The notes under the pieces: model-generated
What the model was told of the DNA's origin: nothing
The model's database searches: none
What the model saw: only the letters and a program-made list of their open reading frames with translations
Translations under genes and position numbers: made by a program
Source of the DNA: Pseudomonadota bacterium
GTDB taxonomy: Bacteria; Desulfobacterota; Desulfovibrionia; Desulfovibrionales; Desulfomicrobiaceae
DNA length: 64,000 nucleotides
Direction: 5' to 3'
NCBI GenBank assembly: GCA_018902545.1
Contig: JAHIQM010000004.1
Span: 124,882 to 188,881, forward strand
Shown: one piece after another, positions 13,123 through 40,956 of the stretch
How the letters are laid out: the number at the start of each line of letters is the position of its first letter
Numbering within the stretch: the first letter of the stretch is position 1

Positions 13123-14319
13123 CTAAACAATTTCTTGCGCTCTTGTATACGGATTCTGCTGGAACAACATCCAAGTCAGCGGCGCAGTGGACAAGACTAA
13201 CAGCACACTCATGGCGATGGATATCCCATACGATCCGGTGGCGTCGGCTATCATGCCGCCCAGTGGCGGACCGATGAGCGCCGCCAGGCCGTACCAAAGG
13301 AAGCAAATGGGATAAAGACGTGGAAATAGCCCTATCCCAAGTTGCTCGACAATTGAGGCTGCATAGACAACGAAGCAGCCACCAAACCCGATGCCCGTGA
13401 GCAGTACGGCGGAGAGCACAAGGGCTGGTACGGACGGAAGCAGAAAGAGCAGCATGCTAAGACCGAGGAAAGCCTGGGAGAGGAAGATGGTCATGCGCGA
13501 ACCGAACCGGTCGTGCACCTGCCCCCAACCGATCCGGCCCATGGCGTTTCCCAGAGCAAAGACCGATATGGCCACGGTGGCAGTCGAACTTCCAAGCCCC
13601 AGGGACAAGGCCATGGGCTTGAGATTGCCCACCACAAGCAGGCCGGCGAAGGTCCCGCAGAACATGCCCAGACACAGGAGCAGAAAATTGCGCGACGTCA
13701 GCGCGCCGGTCGGAACCTGCATTTGGCGCCCTGACGCCCGCTGTATTCCGGTGCCACTGCCGCGGGGAGGTTCGCGCAAGAGCAACGCGCTGCAAACGGC
13801 AACAAGACCGCACCCGAGGCCGATGAATCGGAAGACGTGCATGACGTCCATGCCGCGAGTGACAAGCAGATGCTCGGCCACGAAGCTTAAGAATATGGCA
13901 CCGGCTCCGAAACCGGCCACGGAGACGCCGGTCACAAGCCCCTTCTTGTCAGGAAACCACTGCATGGCCACCGTCAGGGGACAGATGTACCCGAACCCGA
14001 TCCCCGCGCCCGCGACCAGGCTCAGGCTTATGAGCAGCAGGAGAAAATCGCCCTGGGAAAAGGACGCCATCACATACCCTGCAGCAAAAAGCAGCGCGCC
14101 GATGAGCGCCGTCACGCGTGCGCCCCGGCGCTGCATGAATTTCCCGGCGGGAATCATGACACTGGTAAAAACCGCTATGGTAGCCCCAAAAATCAGCCCG
14201 CACTGGCTGGTGGTCAGCCCGTAACCGGATTTCAGCAGTGGAACAAATTCGCTCCAGGCATAAATTCCGCCAAGTATCATCTGCATCAGGCAGCCGGCGC
14301 CCAAGACAGCCCATTTCAT
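13123..14319 (-). CDS. MFS transporter, oxalate/formate antiporter (OFA)-like
   Basis: 12-TM pattern; LGGIYAWS, WFPDKKGLVTG, GRIGWGQVHDRFG. Confidence 0.85.
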   Translation of the reverse strand: MKWAVLGAGCLMQMILGGIYAWSEFVPLLKSGYGLTTSQCGLIFGATIAVFTSVMIPAGKFMQRRGARVTALIGALLFAAGYVMASFSQGDFLLLLISLSLVAGAGIGFGYICPLTVAMQWFPDKKGLVTGVSVAGFGAGAIFLSFVAEHLLVTRGMDVMHVFRFIGLGCGLVAVCSALLLREPPRGSGTGIQRASGRQMQVPTGALTSRNFLLLCLGMFCGTFAGLLVVGNLKPMALSLGLGSSTATVAISVFALGNAMGRIGWGQVHDRFGSRMTIFLSQAFLGLSMLLFLLPSVPALVLSAVLLTGIGFGGCFVVYAASIVEQLGIGLFPRLYPICFLWYGLAALIGPPLGGMIADATGSYGISIAMSVLLVLSTAPLTWMLFQQNPYTRAQEIV

Positions 14320-14624
14320 CGCACGTCCTGCCTGACACCTTCGAGGACATCGAGCACTTCGCCGATACGGCAGGTGCTCTCCAGGGGATGCCGCAGATGC
14401 TTGTCGCGCTGAATGGTGTACTCCACACGCCGCCCATCGCGCTCCCCGGCCAGATAGCCGGCAGCGCGCAACTCTGCGACGATGCGCTGAACGGCGCGCT
14501 CCGTGATGCCGACCTCACGCGCGACATCCCGCATGCGCATGCTCGGGTCCCTGGACAGACACAATAAAACGTGTGTGTGATTGGTCAAAAAGGTCCACAC
14601 GGATTCATAAGGAGCTGAAGTCAT
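14316..14624 (-). CDS. Small winged helix-turn-helix regulator (MarR/AsnC-like)
   Basis: WTFLTNHTHVLLCL, RMRDVAREVGITERAVQRIV; 4-nt overlap with the MFS gene. Confidence 0.85.
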   Translation of the reverse strand: MTSAPYESVWTFLTNHTHVLLCLSRDPSMRMRDVAREVGITERAVQRIVAELRAAGYLAGERDGRRVEYTIQRDKHLRHPLESTCRIGEVLDVLEGVRQDVR

Positions 14625-14685
14625 TGCCTGTCTCTCGTAAAGAAGTGAATGAACTCGCTGTCTAACTACATTTATGCGCAGCATG

Positions 14686-14709
14686 ATTCACGAAAACAGT
14701 TTCGTGAAT
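14686..14709. promoter_or_regulatory. Perfect palindromic operator candidate
   Basis: ATTCACGAAA-acag-TTTCGTGAAT, ~60 nt upstream of the wHTH start. Confidence 0.7.
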
Positions 14710-15458
14710 AGAGCAGCTTTCTGCTCATCAATTCCTTTCGTGTCAAGTCCTCAGTGGCAAAGATGTCATGGTGCGGGCATGTCATTATTCCATGCCGATT
14801 CAAAGAATGCGGTCAGTTTCATGCAAGTGACCAGCTGACAAAGTACCCTCATTCGCGCCAATATTGACAAGCAGAACCAAAAGGCTCATTTAAAAAAAAA
14901 GCGATTTTTTTGATTAGATATTCGCACCAACATCAACAAATGGAGCATTACCAACTCTAAAATATGAAATCTCCGTTAATGACCGAATTGTACAACAACA
15001 AGGTTTTAATACCTGTTCTAAAAAAATGATCAAATGCGCAAATAGTCTATTACGACTGACTATTTCTCTATTATTAGTATTCTGCGCTCATCCTATCTCC
15101 AAAGAATGCGCTCAGGACACTGTACAATCGTTTACTAATAGTTCCAGCATGGTTTATTTCACTCCTGCCATTCTGGAATCAACGCTTGCTACTGTTAGTT
15201 CAACCTCTAAAGAAAGCTATAACTCATCAGATAAATCTTTCCAATATGCATTAACTCTACACCAAATACTCTTAAATTCAACACAGCCGCTATTTTCTAT
15301 TCATTTCAACGATATTGATTGTTTTGCTAATAAAATTTGGCTCGCTGCAACAGCCACTCGCGCTCCTCCTATATTCACATCCTAAATAAGCGTTCTATCT
15401 TTCACCAATACAGTTCGCTGTATGTAGTGATACTTATTTAATTGAATATGGAGTTGTT

Positions 15459-15629
15459 ATGCAAAACAATAATGCACACCCCGATCGCACCACGCCGCCT
15501 TCGCGACATCCAGAAATTGACTATACACCCAAAAAATACAATTTGACTGAAAGTATCCAAATAATGCTGAAATTCTTTTCTATAACAGGCATTATTTTTT
15601 TTTACTTTGGATTTTCGAACGTTAGCTAG
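15459..15629 (+). CDS. Possible 56-aa small membrane protein
   Basis: GGAG 5 nt before ATG; C-terminal hydrophobic segment IMLKFFSITGIIFFYFGF; below the ORF-track cutoff. Confidence 0.4.
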   Translation: MQNNNAHPDRTTPPSRHPEIDYTPKKYNLTESIQIMLKFFSITGIIFFYFGFSNVS

Positions 15630-15719
15630 CTGAATTACATTATTGCGTTTCGATAATTTATGAGGGAGAAATTATCTCCCGCATGTCCAGCGCACAATTT
15701 AAATTTAGTGAGCCTAATA

Positions 15720-16289
15720 ATGATCCTACAAAAACAAAACACCATTCACTGGAACTACTTTATTGCACTTGAAAATGACCTTTCTTTTCTTTCTCGTTTT
15801 TTAGAAATCACGACATCAAATTTCTCCAGCTACTCAATTGAACTTGGCCGCATTCTTTTTGCTGCAGCTTCAGAAGTTGAGGTTGTTGCCAGATTGTATT
15901 GTCAAAAAATTGATAATATTCACGTTACAGAAAACATAGGAAATTACAAAGCAATCATAACTAAACAACACCCAGACTTCCATGCAATCAAGATACACAT
16001 GCCAATACATGGGATCACTTTAAACCCTTGGAATAAATGGAAGACAGAAACTCAGCCACTTTGGTGGCGTGCATACAATAAAGCAAAGCACGAACGTAAT
16101 GAACATTTTGCGGAAGCAAATTTAAAAAATGCCCTTAATGCAACAGCTGCACTTCATATTTTGCTAATTTTACTTTACAAGAAAGAAGCAGAGGCCGGTG
16201 AGCTTATTCCAAATTCACAGATTTTCTTCATTGGAGAACCATTTTCACTCGATGTACAAATGTCGAAACAAACAAGATCTATTTATTAG
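15720..16289 (+). CDS. AT-rich hypothetical protein
   Basis: 189-aa ORF with globular composition (HWNYFIALE, WWRAYNKAKHER, NLKNALNA); function not recognised. Confidence 0.7.
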   Translation: MILQKQNTIHWNYFIALENDLSFLSRFLEITTSNFSSYSIELGRILFAAASEVEVVARLYCQKIDNIHVTENIGNYKAIITKQHPDFHAIKIHMPIHGITLNPWNKWKTETQPLWWRAYNKAKHERNEHFAEANLKNALNATAALHILLILLYKKEAEAGELIPNSQIFFIGEPFSLDVQMSKQTRSIY

Positions 16290-16539
16290 AAATTTACGTC
16301 TTTAAACAATAATTCAAAATCCTGATTGCGCAATTTTATGAGAAGACAAAACCCGAATTGATTAGAATTGAATACATAACCGTTAAAACAGAACGATTAT
16401 TCATGAAGGTCACAGTTACGTATATTGCCATTGATTTCAATCGGCAAGACGCAATATTTACGCGCGTATCATAATGTTCAACCCAAATAAGACGACGTCT
16501 AAAGCAGCTTGATCTTCATTAAACTGCTGTTTTGCTTAA

Positions 16540-16860
16540 AAAAAAATTGAAATTTGAAATTTTTTCATAGTGGATAGTCCTGGAAATAAAATTGCCACAA
16601 ATTTCTACCTAACATCACAGAGATAATTAATAAATTTAAAAATAATTTAATATAACTATTATTATTTTGATTTTGTATTTTTAATATAAAAAATACAACA
16701 ATTTATCATTTTCATAAGTGATTTGAAAATGAATTTTTTACTTTTGTGTTAAATGAATTTTTTTTATTTTTATTTTTTTATTGACAAAAATTTTAATATA
16801 CAACCTAATTTGCGTAAATATAATTTTTTTATCTTGACTTTTGAATTTAGGTAAAACATT
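16540..16860. other. Extremely AT-rich intergenic/promoter region
   Basis: Long A/T tracts with very few G/C in an otherwise GC-rich window; TTGACA at 16781-16786. Confidence 0.8.
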
Positions 16861-16867
16861 TGTACTT

Positions 16868-16990
16868 CAGCATTGCTGAGTTCCGCCCAGGGCGGAAGCG
16901 GGGGACCCAATTCATTGGGGCGAATCGCATACGCGTAGGGCACCTTTCGGCCCGAGCCCGTCAGCTAACCCCGTAAGCATCGAAAGGAGA
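16868..16990 (+). ncRNA. c-di-AMP riboswitch (ydaO/yuaA family)
   Basis: gctgag, gcgggggaccca, tggggcgaat, gtagggcacc, cccgagcccgtcagctaaccccgtaagc; pseudoknot cctttcg (16943-16949) with cgaaagg (16981-16987). Confidence 0.9.
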
Positions 16991-17047
16991 CCTCCCTTCG
17001 GGGTGAGGCCTCCATACGGTCTACACCTCTTTTTTTGTGGAGGGTTT

Positions 17048-17197
17048 ATGTATTATCCCATCCTCGACATCTTGCGACTTCCTTGCAGCGCAAGTACTTT
17101 TATGTTGCGCCTGCGGCGTAAATCCACATCATCGTCTTCTGCCGTTTTGACTACTCACTACGGTGGCATCGACATTCCTTCTCCTCCGTTACTCTAG
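17048..17197 (+). CDS. 49-aa leader ORF between riboswitch and nuoA
   Basis: GGAGG RBS at 17039-17043 that can pair with riboswitch-proximal cctccat; MYYPILDILRLPCSAST... Confidence 0.4.
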   Translation: MYYPILDILRLPCSASTFMLRLRRKSTSSSSAVLTTHYGGIDIPSPPLL

Positions 17198-17369
17198 AAA
17201 AAGGCAGTCACTACATCTTATCGTGACATTCTTTTTTGAGATTATGCGGTCATATCCATTGGCGTGCCAAGCATTAATGAACTCGGAACAACCCGAGACG
17301 GAATCGCTGTAGCCAAATCTGTTTTGAACAATCTGTTGTCATAAATTTATTCTAGCAGGAGTGATCGTT

Positions 17370-17765
17370 ATGGTCTTCAGCTGGATGAACATGTCCATCC
17401 TCGCGTTTCTGGCGGCCGGCGTTGCGTTTGCAATCGGGCCGATTGTTGTATCCATCCTTTTGGCCCCCAAAGCCAGGGGCGGCGCTTTCGCCGAATCCTA
17501 CGAATGCGGCATTCCGGTACACGGGAGGCAGGCAAGAGTTAGCTTTGGCCTAACCTTCTATTTCTATGCACTCATCTTCATCGCCTTCGACGTCGACGTC
17601 CTCTACCTCTTCCCGGTGGCTGCCATGTATCCAGACACCGTTGGGTGGGTCCCCTTCTGGCAGGTCCTCGTCTTCATTTCCGTGCTGTTCACCGCGATCT
17701 TCTATTTTTCCAGCAAAGGAGTGTTCTCATGGCCCAGACGAATCCGCGTATCACCCCGGCGGTAA
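17370..17765 (+). CDS. nuoA: Complex I-like subunit A
   Basis: [26 protein letters not shown]; AGGAG RBS. Confidence 0.9.
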
Positions 17766-40044: not shown

Positions 40045-40956
40045 ATGAAGAACGTTCCCGCACCGCTATCCTGCGCTGCCGCTGCGCATCCAGGATTGGC
40101 CTATCTTTTTTTTCCGCTTATAGCCCTGACCCTTCTTCTCTTTGCCTGGCCCGATCTGGCGGACGCCAAACGTATGGGCGGCGGCGGATCTTTCGGTAGC
40201 AAGCCTTCATACAACAGTGGCTACAACAAGCAGGCTCCTCCAGCCAAAGACTCGCCAGCCATGGCGCAGCAGGCCGCGCCGAACGCCCCGTCCCGCTTCG
40301 GTGGACTTGGCGGCATGTTTGGCGGCCTGCTTATGGGTGGCCTACTTGGCTCCATGCTTTTCGGAGGTGGCGGCTTCGCGGGACCCGGCATGCTCGACAT
40401 GCTCCTTCTGGCGATGGGCGGATTTCTCCTTTTCAAGTTTATCAAATCCCGCAGGGCGGCCACGGCAAACTCCGCGCCCTATGCCTACGCTGGGAACGAA
40501 GAACCTCGTGATACAACGCCTCATGGTGGATGGGGGCAGCAGCGTCTTGAGCCACAAACACCACAGGGACCCGTTTTGCCGAAAGGGTTAGATGAGCAAG
40601 AATTCCTGACAGGGGCCAAAGCTCTTTACACGCGACTGCAAGCCTCCTGGGACCGCCGGGATATCGACGACATCCGGCAGTTCACAAGTCCGGAAGTCCA
40701 TGAAGAGATCGCGCGTCAGGCGACTCTTGATCCTGCGCCAGGCCGCACGGAAATCCTGATGCTCGAAGCACGCGTGCTTGAGGCTCGCAGCGAGGGGACT
40801 GAAACCGTGATCAGCGTTCTCCTTGACGCCATGTTGCGCGAAGACGGCCCCAACGCCACGGCGGAACAGGTCAGAGAGGTTTGGCATATCCGCCGCGACG
40901 AAAGTGCTTCCCCTCCGCAATGGATGTTGGAAGGCATCCAGCAACTGACTTTGTGA
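40045..40956 (+). CDS. Tim44-like domain protein with Gly-rich N-terminal membrane region
   Basis: AKRMGGGGSFG, GGLLMGGLLGSML, FLTGAKALYTRLQASWD, EVWHI...WMLEGIQQ. Confidence 0.88.
   Translation: MKNVPAPLSCAAAAHPGLAYLFFPLIALTLLLFAWPDLADAKRMGGGGSFGSKPSYNSGYNKQAPPAKDSPAMAQQAAPNAPSRFGGLGGMFGGLLMGGLLGSMLFGGGGFAGPGMLDMLLLAMGGFLLFKFIKSRRAATANSAPYAYAGNEEPRDTTPHGGWGQQRLEPQTPQGPVLPKGLDEQEFLTGAKALYTRLQASWDRRDIDDIRQFTSPEVHEEIARQATLDPAPGRTEILMLEARVLEARSEGTETVISVLLDAMLREDGPNATAEQVREVWHIRRDESASPPQWMLEGIQQLTL

Follow-up and report, generated by a model that had tools for sequence, protein, structure and literature searches.

Why would a c-di-AMP riboswitch lie ahead of a 49-codon ORF and, further on, a complex I-like operon? 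This arrangement is found in a 64,000-nt stretch of contig JAHIQM010000004.1 (the window; coordinates refer to positions within it, and all features are on the + strand). An earlier note on this DNA had suggested that c-di-AMP blocks translation of the leader ORF, which exposes a Rho-utilisation (rut) site, so that transcription terminates before nuoA. We compared the leader in the window (the source leader) with its relatives. We propose that the riboswitch was copied ahead of nuo along with the translation start and the first ~50–80 codons of its former target, the transporter gene kup, and that it acts on nuo through this stub.

The aptamer and its orthologues

The aptamer (ydaO/yuaA, RF00379) is at 16864..16994 (+ strand). 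It scores 95.5 bits, as compared to a gathering score of 38 bits for RF00379, and the match spans the full model (positions 1–134). The 3.7-Mb source genome has no second copy of this aptamer, and no other Rfam family was found in 16700–17450. The genome also encodes two proteins with diadenylate cyclase (DAC) domains. The promoter probably includes TTGACT, a −35-like hexamer at 16834..16839 (+ strand), about 25 nt 5′ of the aptamer; TTGAC is at the equivalent position in all of the nuo and kup leaders that we discuss below. A consensus promoter scan also marks 16797–16824, and no sigma-70-like promoter was flagged by scan on the + strand in 16900–17370.

Within the aptamer, CCUUUCG in the loop of a hairpin (16943..16949, + strand) is complementary to CGAAAGG in the tail (16981..16987, + strand), so the pseudoknot that had been noticed earlier is indeed present. 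The last two Gs of the tail strand are also part of a downstream hairpin, which we will call hairpin (b). The pseudoknot pairing is retained in all relatives, and in some of them with changed base pairs, such as CUCUUCG:CGAAGGG in the family that we call f6 and CUUCUCG:CGAGGAG in L100. A regulatory role for the pseudoknot has been reported for a translational c-di-AMP riboswitch (PMC11963983).

The close matches to NuoA (91–92% identity) are from Desulfomicrobium. This type of nuo operon is present in 7 of 25 Desulfomicrobium species genomes, and 6 of the 7 have a riboswitch leader. With three further leaders from assemblies that we found via homologues of NuoA, we have ten distinct leaders, which we divide into clade A (the source leader, L124, L126, L003, L004, L005, and L053) and clade B (L006, L012, and L132). 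There is no aptamer upstream of nuoA in G010 or in four further lineages. A DNA-pattern search of metagenome contigs for more orthologues returned only duplicates of L053 and L004. When compared to its orthologues in clade A, the source aptamer is 88–90% identical and the platform is 81–85% identical; the promoter, the spacer ahead of nuoA, and codons 1–30 of the leader ORF are 53–65% identical.

The leader ORF is open in all ten leaders

The leader ORF (17048..17197, + strand) has 49 codons, from ATG at 17048 to TAG at 17195–17197, just as the earlier note described it. The note's base counts were also exact: the ORF has 47 C and 26 G in 150 nt, which places it in the top 1.6–2.8% of 150-nt segments across the window. 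The note held that lack of conservation of this ORF would count against its model. Instead, the frame from the conserved AUG is open in all ten orthologous nuo leaders. If alignment columns are shuffled, the probability that all sequences are free of stop codons is 0.0091 for the seven leaders of clade A and 0.0061 for the three of clade B, and each of the other two frames has stop codons in several leaders of each clade. The ORF has no indels within its 150 nt (or 192 nt), while indels do occur in the platform and the spacer. It has 49 codons in clade A and 63 codons in clade B. The position of the stop codon is kept in clade A despite exchanges between TAG and TGA, except that the ORF of L124 is 7 codons longer.

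Across the whole ORF, the changes within clade A are distributed by codon position as 35/47/59 (p = 0.0075). This signal is stronger at the end of the ORF. Codons 31–49 (SAVLTTHYGGIDIPSPPLL; 17138..17194, + strand) are conserved at the protein level, with 7/12/20 changes by position (p = 0.0048) and NG86 estimates of 0.08–0.38 for dN and 0.27–2.6 for dS. They are also the most C-rich and G-poor part of the ORF (in 17120–17197, 33% of bases are C and 14% are G). In codons 2–30, dN is similar to dS, and the identity of 59–62% implies a rate like that of the spacer. Clade B has no codon-position signal (27/26/31). The C-terminus in clade A is of the form ...HYGxIDxPSPP(L/S)(L/S/P/F), and the C-terminus in clade B (..PLHM..GHPDQ) is unrelated. 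When we compared the leader peptide to our protein collection, it matched only itself, and it has no match in Pfam even at E ≤ 10.

Because the ORF is open, lacks indels, and has a codon signature, we think that selection keeps the stub translatable throughout. In the substitution patterns of clade A, we also read some constraint on the C-terminal peptide. As a counterweight, the clade-specific ends of the ORF and the shifted stop codon of L124 are what a decaying pseudogene might show. (We also considered GTG at 17003 as an alternative start codon that would be served by the tail's AGGAG, and rejected it: it is in frame in the source sequence only.)

The stub resembles the 5′ end of kup

Other c-di-AMP riboswitches in Desulfomicrobium (L007, L011, L008, and L013) lead straight into the start codon of kup, and the kup that they gate is a full transporter (PF02705, 615.8 bits). 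These leaders share the tail, hairpin (b), the C-rich and G-rich segments, and the Shine-Dalgarno sequence with the nuo leaders, and the identity of their aptamers is 90–94%. The distance from the tail to the AUG is 72–76 nt in kup leaders versus 68–76 nt in nuo leaders.

The similarity continues past the start codon. The leader of L012 (clade B) is collinear with the kup of the same genome over nt 30–189 (z = 13.8). In the frame of the ORF, tblastn gives 41% identity to kup over 46 amino acids, and the homology extends to kup nt 244 in a different frame. For clade A, the best local alignments are also collinear (leader 92–167 versus kup 95–168, z = 2.4–4.1). At the protein level, hhalign places residues 26–43 of the leader ORF on residues 27–44 of Kup (P = 0.008). 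It sets AVLTTHYGGIDI on AALGIVYGDIGT, which is the first conserved motif of the K_trans domain, and codons 31–49 correspond to the Kup motif LAALGIVYGDIGT. In a tree of the aptamer and platform, clade A is monophyletic (support of 90/99), and the clade B nuo copies are not separated from the kup copies. Judged from these alignments, a kup riboswitch was copied together with the 5′ end of kup, which has since decayed, and this copy forms the platform, start site, and leader ORF.

The source genome, which is 99.8% complete, has no kup gene. Given that kup is absent, and that the aptamer has been kept at 88–90% identity between flanks at 53–65%, the regulatory output at nuo seems to be under selection.

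The sister family f6 has the same platform. It lies ahead of kup in L111, L112, and L113. In L104, L105, L106, and L107, it is instead followed by a short ORF of 33–35 codons, with a Kup-like start (MPAV.LA..RP), and then by an APC-family permease (PF13520). The stop codon of this ORF is 10–12 nt from the permease in L104, L105, and L107 and 67 nt from it in L106. So, the gating of a short ORF head ahead of a new gene has arisen more than once in the Desulfovibrionales.

How the platform could hide the Shine-Dalgarno sequence

The Shine-Dalgarno sequence (SD) of the leader ORF is GGAGG at 17039..17043 (+ strand), 4 nt 5′ of the AUG, and in all ten nuo leaders there is a G-rich SD 4–8 nt ahead of the AUG. 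Upstream of it is hairpin (b) (16986..17013, + strand; −15.6 kcal/mol), which is an element of the minimum free energy (MFE) structure from RNAfold. Its outer stem pairs G16986–G16989 with C17010–C17013 (GGAG:CUCC). After a mismatch of A16990 and C17009, the inner stem pairs 16991–16997 with 17001–17008 (CCUCCCU:GGG-GAGG). The earlier note had given this hairpin a cUUCGg cap; the hairpin itself holds up, but the register with C16996..G17001 that would form this cap is possible without being that of the MFE, and the loop is not kept among relatives (UUUG, GUUG, and others).

The earlier note's argument that the pseudoknot and hairpin (b) compete for G16986–G16987 is well borne out. In all 16 of the related platforms that we tabulated, the outer stem takes the last Gs of the tail and its partner co-varies: the pairing is AGGAG:CUCCU in clade A, GGGAG:CUUCC in clade B and kup leaders, and GGGGA:UCCCC in f6. 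(For hairpin (b) and for the pairing c′ described below, we replaced counts of covarying columns in MAFFT alignments with tables of duplexes for each sequence, because the f6 rows were shifted by 2 nt and the registers depend on the clade.) The folding energy of 16980–17060 is not above chance (z = −1.43; 18 of 200 shuffles), so the case for these structures rests on comparing related sequences.

Two C-rich segments near hairpin (b) could act as anti-SDs. Anti-SD 1 (ACCUCCC, 16990..16996, + strand) can pair with the SD, which we call c′. Anti-SD 2 (CCUCCAUA, 17009..17016, + strand) can pair with 17036–17043, which we call (c) (8 bp, −13.0 kcal/mol). Pairing (c) is the one that the earlier note proposed, and it is present: CCTCCAT at 17009–17015 complements GTGGAGG at 17037–17043, which gives 7 bp, or 8 bp with A17016:U17036. 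Between the anti-SDs lies a G-rich anti-anti-SD (GGGGUGAGG, 17000..17008, + strand). It pairs with anti-SD 1 in hairpin (b) or, alternatively, with 17018–17029 in another hairpin, (d) (17000–17010:17018–17029; 3′ arm at 17018..17029, + strand; −16.0 kcal/mol). Hairpins analogous to (d) are predicted in L003, L004, and L005. Without ligand, hairpin (b) would hold both anti-SD segments, although the claim that it hides CCTCCAT is correct for CUCC only, and not for the remaining letters.

Overall, at least four C-rich partners are open to the SD (16991–95, 17009–16, 17026–30, and 17057–66), and (c) is one among them. In the kup and permease leaders, c′ joins the 5′ arm of hairpin (b), (GAG)ACCUCC, to GGAGG(UCUC), with 9–13 bp and a duplex energy of −14.3 to −20.3 kcal/mol, and (c) is weak (−4.5 to −7.8 kcal/mol). 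The extensions of c′ beyond its core are lineage-specific: kup leaders of Desulfomicrobium extend it outward, and f6 leaders extend it inward (for instance, ACCUCCGGUAC:GUACCGGAGGU). As compared to the kup switches of Desulfomicrobium, the nuo leaders have a shortened c′ and a stronger (c). Across the ten nuo leaders, the energy of (c) ranges from −9.5 to −18.3 kcal/mol (−9.5 to −13.4 kcal/mol in the seven that were tabulated). The flanking pairs of c′ are lost in the source leader, L012, and L053. In the source leader, just the 5-bp core remains (−9.4 kcal/mol), and the strongest single duplex with the SD is (c), at −13.0 to −14.7 kcal/mol.

These tables split the claim that (c) sequesters the SD: (c) is strong in the nuo leaders, but on duplex comparison, the conserved sequestor across the family is c′ (ACCUCC:GGAGG). 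Covariation cannot help with (c): the outer stem of (b) and the SD leave its bases no freedom to change. For the source leader, the operative anti-SD may be ACCUCC at 16990–95, CCUCCAUA at 17009–16, or both. If we compare whole structures, hairpin (b) alone has −15.6 kcal/mol, and (b) with a local hairpin (CCUC at 17026–30:GAGG) has −20.3 kcal/mol. The inner stem of (b) combined with (c) has −17.9 kcal/mol, and c′ combined with (d) has −21.5 kcal/mol, which is 3.6 kcal/mol better. Pairing (c) conflicts with hairpin (d) and is absent from both of the modelled MFE structures.

The models favor the expected direction, with ligand turning translation off. When the aptamer tail is blocked in the model, the SD becomes more expensive to open in 15 of 19 platforms, with a mean increase of 1.6 kcal/mol; for the source leader, the cost rises from 5.7 to 7.3 kcal/mol. 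In these nearest-neighbor models, the SD is paired in both states and the effect of the ligand is only ~1.6 kcal/mol, so it is the direction that is supported. The leader also has the features of a translational OFF switch: the SD and start codon of a conserved ORF are in reach of the platform, the helices are mutually exclusive, and the availability of the anti-SD is tied to the Gs of the aptamer tail.

From the leader ORF to nuoA

How could translation of the stub affect nuo? The complex I-like operon begins with nuoA (PF00507; 17370..17765, + strand), whose own SD is AGGAG (17357..17361, + strand). An untranslated spacer of 172 nt (17198..17369, + strand), which includes a hairpin (CUCGG at 17282–86:CCGAG at 17293–97), separates nuoA from the stop codon of the leader ORF; in the orthologues, this distance is 134–306 nt. 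The spacer is 53–65% identical to its orthologues, and it varies by indels, one of which is an insert of 132 nt in L005. We looked here for a relay of overlapping ORFs that would lead from the leader ORF to nuoA, but no second ORF is conserved. The overlap or close spacing of stop and start that is needed for termination-reinitiation is absent from the source leader, and is seen only in permease leaders of f6. We also tried long-range pairing between the start of nuoA and the leader, and rejected it as a conserved mechanism (p = 0.32 for the source leader; L003, with p = 0.014, and L053, with p = 0.04, are marginal). Given the 172-nt gap, the lack of a second ORF, and the lack of significant long-range pairing in the source leader, translational coupling is unlikely. 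Since nuoA is so distant from the end of the stub and brings an SD of its own, the signal must go through translation-dependent transcription.

A rut-like composition of the leader ORF had been proposed, and all ten leaders are indeed C-rich and G-poor, with C/G ratios of 1.4–2.9. In the spacer, the ratio is 0.97 for the source leader and about 1.0 for the clade A spacers that we tested (the source, L003, L004, L005, and L053). But the 5′ coding region of kup has ratios of 1.4–1.8. Because this region is likewise C-rich, the composition is largely inherited from kup and says little in favor of a rut site that evolved here. Rho itself is encoded in the source genome (TIGR00767, 693.8 bits, above the cut-off).

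A hairpin straddles the stop codon of the leader ORF (17193..17241, + strand; −12.8 kcal/mol, z = −3.09). It has a lower stem that joins an A-tract to a U-tract, an upper stem of 5 bp (GUCAC:GUGAC) with an 11-nt loop, and then UUCUUUUUU, with a run of six Us. Because it encloses the stop codon, a terminating ribosome would open it. Strong hairpins 1–10 nt past the stop codon are predicted in L003, L004, and L053, with stems of 11–15 bp and tails such as UUCCUGCG without a U-run. A hairpin at this position is also the RNAalifold consensus for clade A, but covariation is scant (a term of +1.75, with one double change). The sequence of the stop hairpin is absent from kup, so it arose in the leader. 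On these predictions, the hairpin may be a pause element or a weak attenuator.

Our proposal is as follows. c-di-AMP would stabilize the CCUUUCG:CGAAAGG pseudoknot, which takes G16986–G16987. The outer stem of hairpin (b), which otherwise keeps the two C-rich anti-SDs on G-rich decoys, would be lost. The freed anti-SD would pair with GGAGG at 17039–43, and translation of the 49-codon stub would be turned down. Up to this point, the steps are read from the sequence and its relatives. For the final step, we infer that the most likely route is the loading of Rho on the untranslated, C-rich and G-poor RNA of the stub. The stop-straddling hairpin, which would be opened only by a translating ribosome, may assist. 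The net outcome would be that high c-di-AMP lowers the expression of nuo. We give even odds to the mechanism as a whole, that is, a switch, a kup-derived upstream ORF, and Rho-type polarity onto nuo.

Other explanations

One alternative is the exact model of the earlier note, in which (c) is a sufficient sequestor, the inner stem of (b) remains folded when ligand is bound, and Rho acts on the naked leader. In its favor, no other single duplex with the SD is as strong as (c) in the source sequence, (c) is consistently strong in the ten nuo leaders, and the flanking pairs of c′ are gone from three of them (the source leader, L012, and L053). Yet the parent platforms (kup and permease) form only a weak (c), (c) shows no covariation, and the structure that this model requires is the poorer one (−17.9 versus −21.5 kcal/mol), with (c) in neither MFE structure. 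We consider this version unlikely. We are more skeptical of Rho-independent attenuation, with the stop hairpin and its U-run acting as a terminator or pause and translation of the leader ORF acting as the anti-terminator. This would make sense of the hairpin's z score, of the stop codon within its lower stem, of UUCUUUUUU directly after it in the source sequence, of the strong hairpins just past the stop codon in L003, L004, and L053, and of a hairpin sequence that is new relative to kup. However, a strong stem and a U-run do not occur together in any orthologue, the hairpin was not flagged by a terminator scan, it is not conserved in clade B, and the RNAalifold term is +1.75.

The leader might also be a decaying relic, so that the riboswitch gates a meaningless stub of kup and c-di-AMP has no bearing on nuo, which is expressed by read-through or from a promoter of its own. 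In favor of this view, most of the leader is a frameshifted kup fragment, codons 2–30 evolve like the spacer, related nuo operons function without a leader, and nuoA has its own SD. On the other hand, the aptamer and platform are 81–90% identical where neutral sequence is ~60% identical, even though kup itself has been lost. Furthermore, the ORF is open and without indels in all ten leaders, and no sigma-70-like promoter was flagged on the + strand in 16900–17370. We view a relic as improbable, on a par with Rho-independent attenuation. Least probable of all, and very much so, is that the stub's peptide is the functional product, either as a small protein or as a peptide that arrests the ribosome or acts as a sensor, in the manner of TnaC or MgtL. 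Shielding of rut sites by arrest peptides has precedents (PMC12360218), and the purifying selection is limited to the last 19 codons, beside the stop codon, in a proline-rich motif. But the C-terminus in clade B is unrelated and lacks a codon-position signal, the ORF of L124 is 7 codons longer, and the peptide has no match in Pfam.

Comparison to known systems

Our proposal resembles the riboswitch of Thermoanaerobacter pseudethanolicus, which has the same class of aptamer and a ligand-induced pseudoknot with the 3′ tail that turns translation off (PMC11963983). In T. pseudethanolicus, the pseudoknot strand holds the proposed SD, while here the GGAG of the tail is not a working SD. Instead, the SD lies about 55 nt further downstream and would receive the signal via hairpin (b); moreover, what is gated is a stub ORF and not the regulated gene. 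The B12 riboswitch of ppe2 in Mycobacterium tuberculosis is also a translational OFF switch with a short upstream ORF, whose translation is needed by the downstream gene (PMC11260477). PPE2 is made mainly by termination-reinitiation at an adjacent start codon (PMC11260477). With 172 nt from the stop codon to nuoA, reinitiation of this type is not available here, but it fits the f6 leaders L104, L105, and L107, whose stop codons are 10–12 nt before the permease.

Masking of a ribosome binding site by a riboswitch leads to Rho-dependent polarity for thiM, ribB, btuB, lysC, and mntP of Escherichia coli, and Rho attenuators that are gated by upstream ORFs include mgtA/mgtL, corA/corL, tnaC, and speFL (PMC12360218). 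Our proposal shares their logic: if no ribosomes occupy the first ORF, then Rho can reach C-rich RNA and silence the operon. The rut sites of the known riboswitch examples are in the coding region of the regulated gene, while here the putative rut site is in the remnant of another gene.

Thus, translational OFF riboswitches, riboswitch-controlled upstream ORFs, and Rho polarity that depends on a riboswitch or upstream ORF are already known. What is new is the use of the c-di-AMP class in this way, the complex I-like operon as target, the gating of an ORF that is a relic of the old target, and a signal that is passed on by a hairpin, in place of a pseudoknot that captures the SD directly. In the literature that we searched, we found neither a c-di-AMP riboswitch nor a case from the Desulfovibrionales with Rho-dependent riboswitch control, and nothing that links c-di-AMP riboswitches to nuo or to leaders from the Desulfovibrionales. 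If our proposal is correct, then a respiratory, ion-translocating complex I-like operon joins the c-di-AMP regulon, beyond the usual targets that relate to K+, osmolytes, or the cell wall. It would also be a c-di-AMP example of control from riboswitch to upstream ORF to operon, so far known for B12 and Mg2+ leaders. And it would illustrate a route for retargeting a translation-level riboswitch, with the stub of the former gene supplying both a start site and a polarity element.

More broadly, we speculate that such a riboswitch is portable because it carries its old target's start codon and first ~50–80 codons. The stub would be under selection as a "coupling ORF" for the entry of Rho, so that a c-di-AMP signal that is read at the level of translation would come to control the transcription of an unrelated operon (nuo); the permeases of f6 would be a parallel case that uses stop-start coupling, and retargeting of this kind would be a general route. 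This broader idea is tentative, and we would bet mildly against it. If it is true, then c-di-AMP is linked to respiratory or ion-pumping capacity. Because the origin from kup is readable in the sequence, these leaders provide a built-in evolutionary series for experiments: kup leaders, the kup-like leaders of clade B, the leaders of clade A with their reshaped stub and new hairpin, and nuo operons that have no leader.

Proposed origin and re-targeting of the riboswitch

In one clade B genome (G013), the riboswitch upstream of the K+ transporter gene kup (contig C1, 23712-23842, plus strand) and the nuo riboswitch (40722-40852, minus strand) are on opposite strands, separated by only 17 kb. In the tree, clade B nuo copies are not resolved from kup copies, a pattern compatible with local duplication or gene conversion.

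Four related loci from a sister family of the Desulfovibrionales (L104, L105, L107, and L106) have a uORF of 33-35 codons that, judging from sequence, would be gated by c-di-AMP riboswitches (uORF at about 1692-1800 in L104, L105, and L107). In all four, the start of the uORF resembles the N-terminus of the local Kup. The uORF stop is followed by the start of an APC-family permease after 10-12 nt in L104, L105, and L107 and after 67 nt in L106. This arrangement is likely a version of the same riboswitch re-targeting that uses stop-start coupling.

Other nuo operons lack the riboswitch: no aptamer was found in the 600-1200 nt upstream of nuo in L122 (genome G010), L127-L131, or L133-L135. These operons are closely related (NuoA is 80-83% identical). 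When we compared the upstream DNA of G010, L127, L129, L133, L134, and L136 to that of operons with the riboswitch, the shared sequence never exceeded the ~40 nt immediately 5' of nuoA: about 30-40 nt with clade B for G010 and L133, and just the Shine-Dalgarno core for L127, L129, L134, and L136. The riboswitch-less operons are potentially useful as natural controls.

Variation within and around the leader

One clade A leader (L005, genome G007) has a lineage-specific insertion of 132 nt, and it sits in the spacer between the uORF and nuoA; hence the spacer tolerates large indels and the uORF does not. In four clade A leaders (L003, L004, L005, and L053), GAGGUGGUCUCCUAUG at the nuoA start region could pair over 8 bp with AGGAGACC, which comprises the riboswitch tail and the anti-SD (shuffle p = 0.014-0.18). 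This complementarity is absent from the window's own leader (shuffle p = 0.32).

In the window, a GTG at 17003, 13 nt 3' of the AGGAG in the aptamer's tail, shares the reading frame of the leader ORF and would give 64 amino acids (17003-17197). This frame link is not preserved in the relatives, where the platform differs in length by 1-8 nt.

Directly upstream of the riboswitch promoter, and following a MarR/HTH-type regulator gene (14316-14684, minus strand), is a 2.2-kb AT-rich island (14700-16860) with a GC content of 18-40%, versus about 60% in its surroundings. The ORFs at 15026-15385 and 15660-16289 within it had no match in Pfam. The island looks like foreign or fast-evolving DNA.

A contig labelled as Phycisphaerales bacterium UBA7708 (L053 / L097) bears a Desulfomicrobium-type riboswitch-nuo leader. 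Over the ~1 kb that was compared by eye, it is apparently identical to a metagenome contig of 93 kb. The contig labelled Phycisphaerales was probably mis-binned.
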